Source: a virus (taxonomy: Duplodnaviria; Heunggongvirae; Uroviricota; Caudoviricetes). Taken from it: a stretch of 39,429 nucleotides of DNA. The stretch covers positions 1-39,429 of the IMG/VR virus record IMGVR_UViG_2529292726_000015; one strand, given 5' to 3'. This document shows positions 14,890 through 18,462 of the stretch, one piece after another. Numbering within the stretch: position 1 is the stretch's first letter; each line of letters starts with the position of its first letter. The translations under genes were made by a program, and so were the position numbers. The notes below the pieces were generated by a model, which saw only the letters and a list, made by a program, of their open reading frames with translations, had not been told where the DNA came from and ran no database searches.

Positions 14890-15538
14890 TGGCAGCAAAT
14901 ACCGGAATATTTGGGTAGTTGGCGATCTGCACGGATGCTACACGAACCTGATGAAAAAACTGGAGACGATAGGATTCGACATCAAAAAAGACCTGCTTAT
15001 CTCGGTTGGCGATTTGGTCGATCGCGGTACAGAGAACGTCGAATGCCTGGAATTAATCACATTCCCCTGGTTCAGAGCTGTACGTGGAAACCATGAGCAA
15101 ATGATGATTGAGGGCTTATCAGAGCGTGGAAACGTCAATCACTGGCTGTTTAATGGCGGTGGCTGGTTCTTTAATCTCGATTACGACAAAGAAATTCTGG
15201 CTAAAGCTCTTGCCCATAAAGCAGATGAACTTCCGTTAATCATTGAACTGGTGAGCAAAGGTAAAAAATATGTTATCTGCCACGCCGATTATCCTTGTGA
15301 CGAATACGAGTTTGGAAAGCCAGTTGTTCATCAGCAGGTAATCTGGAACCGCGAACGAATCAGCAACTCACAAGACGGGATCGTAAAAGAAATCAAAGGA
15401 GCGGACACGTTCATCTTTGGTCATACGCCAGCAGTGAAACCACTCAAGTTTGCCAACCAAATGTATATCGATACCGGCGCAGTGTTCTGCGGAAACCTCA
15501 CATTGATTCAGGTACAGGGAGAAGGCGCGTGGGCATAA
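14867..15538 (+). CDS. Ser/Thr protein phosphatase (lambda orf221-like, calcineurin-type)
   Basis: [29 protein letters not shown]...GDLVDRG...GNHE metallophosphatase motifs; matches lambda nin-region phosphatase. Confidence 0.85.
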
Positions 15539-16047
15539 GAGAACTAAACCTCACCAAAGAACAGCATGAGTGGCTGAATGGCTGGCTTGAACTGTGGGGC
15601 GCATGGGGTTATTCAGGTCGTCTGGAAAAGCGCATGAGCAGCGTAATAGCGAAGTTCATGGAGAGCGTAGAGCCGGGAAGAGTTATGACAAGGCCAATGT
15701 GCAATGATGATGATGGAATGTTGATTTCTCAGGTCGTCGATTCCGTCATGTACATTGACAAGAAAGCCTTTGGCATCCTCCTCAGCTACTACGCTCATGG
15801 TTCATCTAAGCGAGCAATTGCATCCTACTATCACGCGACTGCAAAGCCACGCAAGATGTGTGGACGTGGTGGCGAGGGATGGAGAAAACCTTCACTGGCA
15901 ACCTGTAGAAACGAAATTGACGACATCCTGAAAGCGTCATTATTTGTTTTATACCAGCCAATGCAAAATGCTTTCAAAATGCGTAAACGTGTTGAGAAAG
16001 TTAAGCATGTTGCTGTTAAAAGTCTTGACATGCAATTAGCCATTTAG
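15529..16047 (+). CDS. Q: Late-gene antiterminator Q (non-lambda type, phage 82/21-like family)
   Basis: 172 aa, last gene before the late promoter; [11 protein letters not shown] motif recalled from the Q-antiterminator family; not similar to lambda Q. Confidence 0.65.
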
Positions 16048-16054
16048 CCATAAT
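16025..16054 (+). promoter_or_regulatory. Candidate late promoter PR' overlapping the end of Q
   Basis: TTGACA (16025-16030), 18-bp spacer, CATAAT (16049-16054). Confidence 0.45.
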
Positions 16055-16093
16055 ATTCACATATGCTGCTGCTTTTGCATTCAGCAACCATCA

Positions 16094-16120
16094 AAAGCCC
16101 ACCTCCTGTGGGCTTTTTTG
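16094..16120 (+). terminator. Strong rho-independent terminator about 40 nt downstream of candidate PR'
   Basis: Stem AAGCCCAC-CTCCT-GTGGGCTT followed by a T6 run. Confidence 0.6.
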
Positions 16121-16241
16121 CATTCGCGTGCAATCAAAACAAGAGTCTTAGTGATATGGGCCTGAGATATGGTGGTGGAAACATCGCTCCGCTCTTGGCT
16201 GTCATATCTACGCGAACAGGCTCTATCCCTAAGGTAAAGCG

Positions 16242-16754
16242 ATGAAAGAAATAAAATTAACGCCAGAAATGGTGCTTTCTGTTGTTGATTACAATCCATC
16301 ATCAGGCGACTTTCACTGGAGATGGAGGCAGGGGAGAGAGAGGACCACTTTGACATGGAACTCTCGTTTTGCTTTCAAGAAATGCTCATCAATAAATTCT
16401 GATGGGTATTTAATGATTATGATTAATGGTAAAGCATACCCTGCTCACAGACTGGCATGGTTGATTGTTTATGGCACCATGCCCGATGGTTTTATTGATC
16501 ACATCAACAGGGTAAGAACAGATAACCGGATATCAAATCTTCGTCTTGTCACTCATTCCGAAAATATGCAAAACAGGAAAATTCAGAAGAATAATAAATC
16601 TGGATACCGTGGCGTGTCTTGGGATGCTAAGTACGGGAAATGGAGAGCAAGAATTAATGCGTCTGGAAAGTGTATTAACCTTGGATACCATGACACTGCC
16701 GAACTTGCCGCTGCGGCTTTTGAGGCAGCCAGAATGAAATATCATACCGTTTAA
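16242..16754 (+). CDS. HNH endonuclease with AP2-type DNA-binding domain (homing-endonuclease-like)
   Basis: HNH motif GFIDHINRVRTDNRISNLRLVTHSENMQN; AP2-like GYRGVSWDAKYGKWRARINASGKCINLGYHDTAELAAAAFEAA. Confidence 0.75.
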   Translation: MKEIKLTPEMVLSVVDYNPSSGDFHWRWRQGRERTTLTWNSRFAFKKCSSINSDGYLMIMINGKAYPAHRLAWLIVYGTMPDGFIDHINRVRTDNRISNLRLVTHSENMQNRKIQKNNKSGYRGVSWDAKYGKWRARINASGKCINLGYHDTAELAAAAFEAARMKYHTV

Positions 16755-16762
16755 AGATGTAA

Positions 16763-16805
16763 GCTGCCGTTAGTGACTCTTAAGTTGCGACGGTGGCTTT
16801 TTTGT
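16763..16805 (+). terminator. Candidate tR'-equivalent terminator
   Basis: GC stem with two G-U pairs followed by GGCTTTTTTGTTTG; followed by CACAACAGGTAAGAGCATT as recalled downstream of lambda tR'. Confidence 0.4.
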
Positions 16806-17244
16806 TTGCACAACAGGTAAGAGCATTCTCCCTTATGGGGCTTGGCTTAAATGCACCGAGTGCTCTTATCGTTGTGGTGAAGCTCAATGGCGAGCTAGCA
16901 GATAGGCGACAGTGAAAATACTAGTCATGTAGCTGACCGCCGCGCGTACTGCAATCGGCAGCGCACCGATGGAAGCCGGTTCGATTCCGGCCGCCACAAC
17001 CCAAACTGAGCCGTAGCCACTGGCTATCCTGAATTCATCAGTGATAGTTACGCTGCGGCCTTCTAAACATGACCTTCGTGAAAGCGGGTGGCAAGAGGCT
17101 GCGCTAACAACCTCCTGCCGTTTTGCCCGTGCATATCGGTCACGAACAAATCTGATTACTAAACACAGTAGCCTGGATTTGTTCTATCAGTAATCGACCT
17201 TATTCCTAATTAAATAGAGCAAATCCCCTTATTGGGGGTAAGAC

Positions 17245-17568
17245 ATGAAGATGCCAGAAAAACATGACCTGTTAGCCGCCATTCTCGCGGCAAAGGAACA
17301 AGGCATCGGGGCAATCCTTGCGTTTGCAATGGCGTACCTTCGCGGCAGATATAATGGCGGTGCGTTTACAAAAACAGTAATCGACGCAACGATGTGCGCC
17401 ATTATCGCCTGGTTCATTCGTGACCTTCTCGACTTCGCCGGACTAAGTAGCAATCTCGCTTATATAACGAGCGTGTTCATCGGCTACATCGGTACTGACT
17501 CGATTGGTTCGCTTATCAAACGCTTCGCTGCTAAAAAAGCCGGAATAGAAGATGGTGGAAATCAATAA
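17245..17568 (+). CDS. S: Holin S (dual-start MKM, class I)
   Basis: 107 aa [41 protein letters not shown]... essentially lambda S. Confidence 0.92.
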
Positions 17569-18028
17569 TCAACGTAAGGCGTTCCTCGATATGCTGGCGT
17601 GGTCAGAGGGAACTGATAACGGACGGCAGAAAACCAGAAATCATGGTTATGACGTCATTGTAGGCGGAGAGCTATTCACTGATTACTCCGATCACCCTCG
17701 CAAACTTGTCACGCTAAACCCCAAACTCAAATCAACAGCCGCCGGACGCTACCAGCTTCTTTCCCGTTGGTGGGATGCCTACCGCAAGCAGCTTGGCCTG
17801 AAAGACTTCTCTCCGAAAAGCCAGGACGCTGTGGCATTGCAACAGATTAAAGAGCGTGGCGCTTTACCGATGATTGATCGCGGTGATATCCGTCAGGCTA
17901 TCGACCGTTGTAGCAATATCTGGGCTTCTCTTCCGGGCGCTGGTTATGGTCAGTTCGAGCATAAGGCTGACAGCCTGATTGCAAAATTCAAAGAAGCTGG
18001 CGGAACAGTCAGAGAGATTGAGGTATGA
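17552..18028 (+). CDS. R: Endolysin R (lytic transglycosylase)
   Basis: 158 aa [42 protein letters not shown]... matches lambda R. Confidence 0.92.
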
Positions 18029-18462
18029 GCAGAGCAACCGCGATTATCTCCGCTCTGGTTATCTGCATCATCGTTTGCCTGTCATGGGCTGTTAATCACT
18101 ACCGTGATAACGCCATCGCCTACAAAGAGCAGCGCGATAAGGCCGCATCCACAATTGCTGACATGCAGAAGCGTCAACGTGATGTAGCAGAACTCGACGC
18201 CAGATACACAAAGGAGCTTGCTGATGCTAACGCGACTATCGAAAGCCTCCGTGCTGATGTTTCTGCTGGTCGTAAGCGCCTGCAAGTCGCCGCCACCTGT
18301 GCAAAGTCAACGACCGGAGCCAGCAGCATGGGCGATGGAGAAAGCCCAAGACTTACAGCAGATGCTGAACTCAATTATTACCGTCTCCGAAGTGGAATCG
18401 ACAGGATAACCGCGCAGGTTAACTACCTGCAGGAGTACATCAGGACGCAATGCCTTCGATGA
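18025..18462 (+). CDS. Rz: Spanin inner-membrane subunit Rz
   Basis: [34 protein letters not shown]... matches lambda Rz N-terminus. Confidence 0.85.
18218..18409 (+). CDS. Rz1: Spanin outer-membrane lipoprotein Rz1, embedded in +1 frame of Rz
   Basis: Signal peptide with lipobox (LLVVSAC), Pro-rich mature part; nested in Rz as in lambda. Confidence 0.7.

Follow-up and report, generated by a model that had tools for sequence, protein, structure and literature searches.

An HNH-AP2 endonuclease gene in the late leader of a P22-like Escherichia coli phage lies in a cassette with a structured leader and its own terminator

Why does an endonuclease gene stand between the antiterminator gene Q and the lysis gene S of a lambdoid phage, in the leader of the late operon, and how would it be expressed and spread from there? 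The question is raised by the viral record IMGVR_UViG_2529292726_000015, of which the whole analysed stretch of 39,429 nucleotides is called the window below and whose genome type is that of a P22-like (IME10/CUS-3/Sf6-like) E. coli phage or prophage. An initial annotation of the window had described an HNH endonuclease gene with an AP2-type DNA-binding domain inserted in this segment between two terminators, the second followed by a lambda-like late leader. Comparison with related phages, prophages and genomes bears out this description and extends it. The open reading frame (ORF) at 16242-16754 probably encodes a functional free-standing endonuclease of homing type, and it forms the core of a leader-ORF-terminator cassette behind the late terminator tR'. 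The features of this cassette and the terminator in front of it are as follows.

16093-16119, plus strand: first intrinsic terminator, the working tR' (type B), a hairpin AAAAGCCCAC/GTGGGCTTTT with a 10-bp stem and T6
16118-16250, plus strand: structured leader RNA of the HNH gene, matched by a covariance model with 119.9 bits, single copy in the window
16242-16754, plus strand: HNH(HNN)-AP2 endonuclease gene, 170 amino acids, ATG start, Pfam HNH_3 and AP2
16761-16803, plus strand: second intrinsic terminator, the tR' hairpin of phage 21, Sf6 and HK75 (type A), a hairpin with T6 after the HNH stop codon

The insertion boundaries and allele types were defined by aligning the Q-to-S interval of the window with that of relatives. 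In the type A leader, carried by phage 21, Sf6 and HK75, the -10 hexamer of the late promoter PR' is followed by TAGAAGG, by TAAGCT and then by the hairpin that is annotated as tR' in the Sf6 and HK75 records. In the type B leader, carried by E. coli WCHEC115106, by the viral contigs L177 and L182 and, in more diverged form, by Hafnia phage yong1, ATTCACA and TATGCTGCTGCTTTTGCATTCAGC come after the -10 hexamer, then another hairpin, GCCCAC...GTGGGC with a T-run, and directly after it the same downstream DNA. The occupied state is found in the window, in phage HK629 and in the E2348/69 prophage; here the type B start and terminator are followed by 122 nt of non-coding DNA (16120-16241), the HNH ORF, the type A hairpin and the common downstream DNA. 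Compared with type A, the extra DNA runs from 16055 to about 16759, and compared with type B it runs from 16120 to 16803, beginning exactly past the T-run. These boundaries are clean against Sf6 and HK75, the closest relatives, which have identical flanks and lack the gene, and also against WCHEC115106. Judged by these alignments, the inserted unit is a cassette of 685-705 bp in which the ORF is accompanied by a structured leader and by a terminator of its own; in a Q/PR' module of phage-21 type, this cassette directly follows the T-run of the first late terminator. The initial annotation was thus right that the HNH gene is inserted, and the extent of the insert is refined here to take in the conserved 5' leader and the terminator.

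Among 5426 complete E. coli genomes, 40 carry the HNH ORF and 41 the 187 nt upstream of it, the extra genome being WCHEC115106, which matches the type B start and terminator only. About 360 of these genomes have the type A junction without interruption. With 40 occupied against about 360 uninterrupted leaders, the gene is an optional insert, in line with the insertion proposed in the initial annotation, and not an ancestral conserved component of the late region. In this respect it behaves as expected of a homing gene, being present in some and absent from others of a set of genomes that are homologous around a single locus.

Both flanking hairpins have the form of an intrinsic terminator, a GC-rich hairpin followed by a U-run, and the records of HK629, HK75 and Sf6 label the homologous hairpins as terminators. 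The first (-14.3 kcal/mol, z = -3.5) begins 39 nt past the -10 hexamer, in agreement with the strong terminator initially placed about 40 nt after the candidate PR', and its type is the only late terminator in the HNH-less WCHEC115106, L177, L182 and Hafnia phage yong1. The second (-19.9 kcal/mol, z = -3.2) is followed by lambda-like DNA, also as annotated, and its homologue is the annotated tR' of Sf6 and HK75. The name "tR'-like terminator", which had been given to the second hairpin, was correct as to type, since this is the phage-21 tR' hairpin and travels with the HNH gene, but the hairpin working as tR' in the window is the first one. A simple terminator scan missed both, likely because their A/U-extended stems consume part of the T-run, and they were identified by folding and by homology to the annotated Sf6 and HK75 terminators. 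An A-run lies 5' of the first stem, and this hairpin looks bidirectional; a weak Rfam match to "P9 sRNA" on the minus strand (16094-16158, E 0.085) is merely the same hairpin. Behind HNH genes whose proteins share only 67-71% identity, the type A hairpin keeps 87-88% identity. Due to this conservation, it is possible that the tR' hairpin known from phage 21 arose as the HNH cassette's own 3' terminator, and that the classical phage-21 leader derives by deletion from an occupied site. When 16755-16803 of the window was compared with 2026-2080 of the Sf6 sequence (L003) and 3598-3650 of L016, the hairpin was consistently joined to the 3' end of the HNH lineage.

The 170-amino-acid protein was evaluated by profile search and structure prediction. 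The Pfam match to HNH_3 has 66.1 bits against a cut-off of 24.8 (E 2e-18), and the match to AP2, at residues 120-167, has 35.1 bits against 33.3 (E 1.6e-8); the gene is intact and has both domains that the initial annotation had assigned to it. An alignment-based AlphaFold model has a predicted local distance difference test score (pLDDT) of 93. The best solved match of this model in Foldseek is I-HmuI (1u3e, E 7e-4, probability 1.0), followed by plant AP2 domains (AtERF1 and TEM1) at a root-mean-square deviation of 1.2-1.8 A, and a sequence search of the PDB is consistent with the assignment to I-HmuI and AP2. The AP2 part of the model has the expected three-stranded sheet (125-128, 133-140 and 143-150) on a C-terminal helix (153-167), in agreement with the profile match. 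The HNH catalytic residues are present on alignment, as they would have to be in an intact nuclease: they fall on the DH...N...N motif of I-HmuI, and D86, H87, N99, H105 and N108 are invariant in eight lineages whose proteins are 54-96% identical to that of the window, with D86, H87 and N99 also invariant among 62 wider homologues. These data place the protein in the HNH / His-Me finger group, HNH_3 (I-HmuI-like, "HNN") subfamily. Between lineages the proportion of synonymous differences (pS) is about 0.8 and saturated, that of nonsynonymous differences (pN) is 0.19-0.29, and the closest pair has a ratio of nonsynonymous to synonymous rates (dN/dS) of 0.26. By these measures the gene is under purifying selection, with the nuclease kept functional. 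Judged by sequence and domain architecture, the protein belongs to the large free-standing HNN-AP2 ("IPA-HNH") family of phage homing endonuclease genes. By tblastn, relatives were found in 3783 phage records, HK629 being the sole one not below 60% identity. The gene is already annotated as "HNH endonuclease" in HK629 and as "HNH endonuclease signature motif containing protein" in the RefSeq entry of the E2348/69 copy, and as one more free-standing HNH-AP2 gene, annotated already in HK629 and RefSeq prophages, it adds little alone. Further free-standing HNH_3 genes, some with AP2, occur in the nin regions of phages with late-leader HNH homologues (L009 1776-2297, L012 959-1549, L014 1544-2098 and L015 1042-1518), which have several such genes per genome.

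The leader in front of the gene has the elements listed here; P0 is a small hairpin, and P1-P4, which come after it, make up a bent hairpin of about 100 nt.

16118-16122 with 16129-16133, plus strand: helix P0
16140-16145 (CAAGAG) with 16192-16197 (CUCUUG), plus strand: probable pseudoknot
16147-16156 with 16224-16233, plus strand: helix P1, whose 3' strand overlaps the Shine-Dalgarno sequence AAGG (16231-16234)
16158-16164 with 16217-16223, plus strand: helix P2
16165-16169 with 16205-16209, plus strand: helix P3
16170-16175 with 16199-16204, plus strand: helix P4
16210-16216, plus strand: conserved 3' internal loop ACGCGAA

The Shine-Dalgarno sequence lies 8 nt before the HNH start codon (16242). 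The 121 nt 5' of this ATG are 86-100% identical across lineages in which the DNA identity of the ORF is 59-68%, and in these comparisons the leader is far better conserved than the gene it precedes. In a MAFFT alignment, which is not fitted to structure, 90.8% of the cells are paired, compared with 33-47% when the partner columns are slid, and 12 pairs change on both sides; none of 500 shuffles reached the observed values. In model-fitted alignments, which are biased towards the structure of the covariance model itself, 25/31 and 21/31 pairs change on both sides. RNAalifold recovered P0-P4 independently. The wobble pairs in P2-P4 (57 G.U against 9 A.C) favour the sense strand, and P1, with a recurrent C.A mismatch, is ambiguous in this strand test. 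In 76 of the 78 distinct sequences the apical loop has its complement in the 6-9 nt directly 5' of P1, and the pairing occurs in covarying forms (CAAGAG/CUCUUG, CCCGAG/CUCGGG, CGAGAG/CUCUCG and CACAGA/UCUGUG), with a mean of 6.2 bp between flank and loop of the same copy against 4.5 bp across types. A pseudoknot is therefore probable in the predicted structure, but is not proven. A K-turn at the P2/P3 internal loop was considered and is inconsistent with the covariation of P3. Frame-breaking indels of 1-2 nt between lineages indicate that the leader holds no conserved small ORF; they reject a 60-amino-acid ORF at 16063-16245 (plus strand) as a small protein, and they likewise break a mechanically called 91-amino-acid ORF at 16081-16356 (minus strand) that overlaps the leader.

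The distribution of this leader is wider than that of the nuclease gene. Within the interval from PR' to the lysis genes, the stretch behind the T-run was never found without the HNH gene. A profile made from it detected diverged copies behind the lysis-gene terminator of HK75/HK97-like phages and in several viral contigs, and the covariance model then gave at least 102 further copies among viral contigs retrieved with a loose pattern. HK97 also has the leader. Such copies have a terminator on the 5' side and an accessory gene on the 3' side, in constant orientation and at a fixed distance from the Shine-Dalgarno sequence and AUG. The genes behind them are mostly Rha, with or without ORF11CD3, and KilA-N; Ant/KilAC, T5orf172/MUG113 (GIY-YIG) nucleases and other HNH_3 genes also occur. 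One leader subtype is present in 902 of the 5426 complete E. coli genomes, 5' of genes annotated as Rha family or GIY-YIG nuclease. None of the distant HNH-AP2 relatives (L237-L273, at most 46% identity) has the leader, which indicates that it is not general to the HNH-AP2 protein family. Copies other than that of the window include HK75 (L002 3819-3962), Hafnia phage yong1 (L006 3924-4062), L011 (5459-5597 and 5787-5931) and L275-L374; weaker copies stand before a 54-amino-acid HNH-AP2 remnant in L289 (11106-11242) and before another HNH_3 lineage in L370 (12597-12734).

A search of Rfam 15 at E <= 1 returned no family on the plus strand of 16118-16250 or on the copies of HK75, L011 and Hafnia phage yong1, and literature searches of limited scope (HK629, rha/IHF and KilA-N RNA motifs) turned up neither the cassette nor the leader, so the leader RNA may be new. 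We suggest, tentatively, that it represents an uncatalogued and widespread class of cis-regulatory RNA, probably pseudoknotted, which in enterobacterial temperate phages would gate the translation of accessory late genes. The genes proposed to be gated in this way are potentially toxic: HNH-AP2 and GIY-YIG/T5orf172 nucleases, Rha, KilA-N and Ant. Candidates for the trigger are a ligand, a protein or processing by RNase III. Most simply, the leader would damp a toxic product constitutively or serve as a processing signal of RNase III type, and it may instead sense a ligand or protein. If the leader acts as a sensor or processing signal, the accessory genes of lambdoid late operons would share a layer of control. 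We consider the leader RNA more interesting than the nuclease gene, as it is abundant, shows strong covariation, is absent from Rfam and precedes toxic or regulatory genes.

The spread of the cassette was examined through its flanks. In the 40 E. coli contexts the cassette is 98-99.7% identical and the Q flank 89-99% identical, the gene 5' of Q varies, and at least three kinds of downstream DNA occur (HK75-like, HK629-like and one with tRNA-Asn and tRNA-Thr). The identical protein is encoded in HK629, a lambda-type cos phage, and in the window phage, whose packaging is taken as headful from its P22 gp3-type small terminase. Homologues of 53-76% identity fill this slot in Pantoea and Serratia, in metagenomic phages and in a further type of E. 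coli prophage, where they directly follow a Q gene of the Q21 family and precede the lysis genes. The same slot in several genera indicates that the association of this HNH lineage with Q21-type late leaders is old, with patchy occupancy. Every lineage has a terminator a few nt past the stop codon and then the leader DNA that follows tR' directly in HNH-less relatives, which again points to leader, ORF and terminator as the mobile unit. A 17-mer scan of genome contigs gave chance matches only, and a 22-mer scan of metagenomes gave 2 loci only. Truncated copies were also observed: all that is left of the HNH ORF in PhiR12_1 (L005, about 2699-2776) and E. coli NCTC9112 (L008, about 2188-2255) is its first 68-76 nt. 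In the PhiR12 phages and NCTC9112 these copies are fused to late DNA of the Shiga toxin (Stx) phage type, including a SASA/NanS-p esterase gene, which makes the slot a recombination junction between Q21-type and Stx-type late regions.

How the gene would be transcribed depends on the late regulatory module upstream of it, which consists of the following features.

15529-16047, plus strand: Q antiterminator gene of phage-21 type, Pfam Phage_antitermQ, 87.6 bits
16025-16054, plus strand: late promoter PR', with -35 TTGACA (16025-16030), an 18-nt spacer and -10 CATAAT (16049-16054)
16055-16092, plus strand: initial transcribed region of type B, with the -10-like hexamer TATGCT (16062-16067) 7 nt past the -10 element

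The Q protein is about 88% identical to the crystallised Q21 (6JNX/6P18; phmmer against PDB chains, E 1e-91), its residues 1-102 are nearly identical to the Q21 chains, and as a Q21-family protein it is encoded directly 5' of PR'. The promoter overlaps the 3' end of Q, has 11 of 12 consensus positions and was the sole strong plus-strand match in a promoter scan of 15400-17400. Up to the -10 element, spacer repeats included, it is identical to the annotated PR' of Sf6 and HK75. In phage 21, the Q21 binding element lies within -40 to -1 of PR'21 as two direct 8-bp subsites, and loading of Q21 requires only -40 to -1 of PR'21 and a sigma-dependent pause element in its native position (10.1101/651190). 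The spacer in the window (16035-16050) holds two direct 8-bp repeats, ATTAGCCA and TTTAGCCA, which are presumed to be the Q-binding element. The hexamer TATGCT stands at the same distance as TAAGCT of Sf6 and HK75 and is presumed to be the sigma-dependent pause element; as it is placed where type A has TAAGCT, Q would be expected to load normally at the window PR'. The motif CATATGCTGCTnnTTTnnCnTTCAGC in the early transcript recurs in many late leaders of the Q21 family, whether or not these hold the HNH gene, and probably serves Q function. The terminated PR' RNA (16061-16119, about 60 nt) would fold into a 5' hairpin (16064-16086) and the tR' hairpin (-23.3 kcal/mol, z = -3.8), and by analogy with lambda 6S RNA or StxS, lysogens may make it constitutively as a small RNA. 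The GenBank record of HK629 sets a "putative late promoter pR'" at 2178-2183 of its sequence (L001), which corresponds to 16207-16212 of the window. This site has no consensus match, lies inside helix P3 and is 3' of the first terminator, so the promoter at 16025-16054 is a far better candidate for PR'.

Between tR' and the HNH start codon the promoter scan gave no match, so a separate promoter for the HNH gene was rejected and Q-dependent late expression is consistent with the anatomy. From this anatomy the following sequence of events can be proposed. PR' would fire constitutively, and without Q its transcripts would end at tR' as the RNA of about 60 nt. Once Q is loaded at PR', polymerase would read through tR' into the leader and on into the HNH gene, which would be the first late gene transcribed, and then pass the second terminator into S-R-Rz and the morphogenetic genes. 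Pairing of the leader helix P1 with the Shine-Dalgarno sequence would hold down translation of the nuclease. The enzyme would most likely nick or cut the HNH-less late leaders of co-infecting or resident lambdoid phages, and recombinational repair would copy the cassette in, as intron-less homing or marker exclusion. The transcription and translation steps are derived from the anatomy, and the cutting and copying step, with its nuclease activity, its target and the homing-type spread, from family membership and distribution only.

Several observations weigh against homing as the explanation. Occupancy is about 10% of Q21-type leaders, truncated HNH copies exist, and the empty sites are of three kinds without an obvious common recognition sequence. 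Types A and B could each have arisen from the occupied form by deletion. The structured leader RNA also stands before the non-nuclease genes Rha, KilA-N and Ant, so the cassette looks like a general "late moron" format that is not specific to homing. The main weakness is that ordinary lambdoid recombination, with no bias from a nuclease, could explain both the patchiness and the mosaic flanks. The nuclease could also be a domesticated accessory enzyme that benefits the phage by cutting competitor or prophage DNA, by stimulating recombination or by degrading host DNA late. Strong purifying selection, the persistence of the lineage in one regulatory slot across genera, the strictly timed expression given by its place as first late gene, and the tuned dosage implied by a dedicated conserved leader all fit such a role. 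The gene is nevertheless absent from about 90% of otherwise near-identical late regions and so is dispensable, and its family is known mainly as selfish homing genes. We regard domestication as unlikely, although marker exclusion by homing would also yield "competition", and to this extent the accessory role overlaps with homing and is inseparable from it with these data. A helper of packaging, aiding terminase in cos cleavage as HK97 gp74 does, is hardly credible. The gene is late, and terminase-assisting HNH proteins reportedly exist in HK97-like phages, but here it is set apart from the small terminase gene by about 2.3 kb and five genes, with S, R, Rz and a DUF2560 gene intervening. The identical protein also occurs with headful (window) and cos (HK629) modules, relatives with the same packaging genes lack it, and its I-HmuI-like and AP2 architecture is not that of the small gp74-type HNH proteins. 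Gene context and the two packaging types thus place it outside the gp74-type terminase-associated group.

The leader allows two further readings to be weighed. As the leader family mostly precedes DNA-binding regulators and AP2 is a domain of plant transcription factors, the protein might act mainly as an AP2 DNA-binding regulator, with an inactive or irrelevant nuclease, like Rha, KilA-N or Ant behind the same leader. There is a precedent in I-TevI, a homing enzyme that doubles as an autorepressor. However, the HNH catalytic and metal-binding positions are invariant over saturating divergence, which would be unexpected if catalysis were dispensable, and we consider a mainly regulatory role very unlikely. 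The other reading concerns the 125-nt leader itself, which might be an element at the DNA level (a mosaic boundary, a recombination linker or a protein site) or an antisense RNA instead of a sense regulatory RNA. The records of CUS-3 and Sf6 mark lambdoid "boundary sequences" between Q and S, the leader lies exactly at module junctions, the recurrent C.A mismatch of P1 would be G.U on the opposite strand, and tR' looks bidirectional. These points are outweighed by the 21-25 of 31 pairs with double compensatory changes, by the constant orientation and fixed distance to the downstream Shine-Dalgarno sequence and AUG, and by the promoter scan, which gave no leftward promoter near the ATG. The G.U/A.C asymmetry of P2-P4 (57 against 9) likewise favours the sense strand and disfavours an antisense RNA or DNA cruciform, with P1 ambiguous. 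A DNA element or antisense RNA is on balance improbable, if somewhat less so than the regulatory role of the protein.

With a homing-type endonuclease as the preferred reading, the cassette can be compared with known systems. The likeness to I-HmuI, a nicking HNH homing endonuclease of Bacillus phage SPO1 (PDB 1U3E), covers approximately residues 50-113 and the N-terminal sheet, with the DH...N...N motif in common; I-HmuI is intron-encoded and ends in a helix-turn-helix, whereas the window protein is free-standing and ends in AP2, and the identity is about 23%. The HNN-AP2/"IPA-HNH" genes of Xp10/Xop411/OP1, ICP1, T5 and FelixO1-like phages have the same architecture and size, at 40-45% identity by tblastn. 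Such genes are patchy between related phages and lie at boundaries of genetic exchange (PMC2248197; PMC10448857; Magnani 2004); they occur mostly in virulent phages, scattered among structural and replication genes, and conserved flanks are not reported for them (PMC2248197). The window lineage differs in occupying one regulatory slot in temperate lambdoid phages, with a structured leader and a terminator.

In relation to phage 21, Sf6 and HK75, the window shares a Q about 88% identical to Q21, a promoter and presumed Q-binding repeats identical to those of Sf6, and the tR' hairpin, but its early region and first terminator are of type B and the phage-21 tR' hairpin stands 700 bp further downstream. 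Stx phages carry stx genes and tRNAs between PR'/tR' and S, and StxS is a short PR' RNA to which lambda 6S RNA is analogous. The window cargo has the same slot, the same Q-dependent late logic and probably a terminated PR' RNA of about 60 nt; unlike the Stx cargo it is a nuclease and not a toxin, and it brings its own leader and terminator. The Seg and Mob genes of T4 are reported to spread by intron-less homing and marker exclusion, and I-TevI and mobE are said to be under translational control. The window resembles these in having a free-standing nuclease gene between conserved genes, with a predicted restriction of its expression through a ribosome-binding site buried in RNA structure. Its leader is much larger, belongs to a probably pseudoknotted RNA family and is common to non-nuclease genes. 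HK97 gp74 is likewise a late lambdoid HNH nuclease, but it is of another HNH subfamily, has no AP2 and adjoins the terminase genes. As the cassette sits in a very well understood switch, Q antitermination at PR', any homing, the dosage control and the influence of additional terminators on the timing of late genes are tractable with lambda and phage-21 tools.

Downstream of the cassette, the late region continues with the following features.

16804-17244, plus strand: lambda-like late leader before S, by alignment with lambda 44729-45201
17245-18462, plus strand: lysis genes S (17245-17568, Pfam Phage_holin_3_1), R (17552-18028) and Rz (18025-18462), as ORFs

Homologues of S, R and Rz are annotated in HK629, HK75 and Sf6. 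Two parts of the late leader, 16804-16830 and 17005-17244, differ very little from the stretch of lambda DNA that separates tR' from S. Between them, at 16944-17002, is a tRNA-like 3' remnant with the T-arm GGTTCGATTCC and an acceptor end, which is also present in HK75. ARAGORN called no tRNA gene in this slot and an intact tRNA was rejected, and the transfer-messenger RNA (tmRNA) model of Rfam matched the remnant by the model ends only, with 20 bits, below the gathering threshold. In the slot of this remnant, Sf6 and the E2348/69 prophage have tRNA-Asn and tRNA-Thr.

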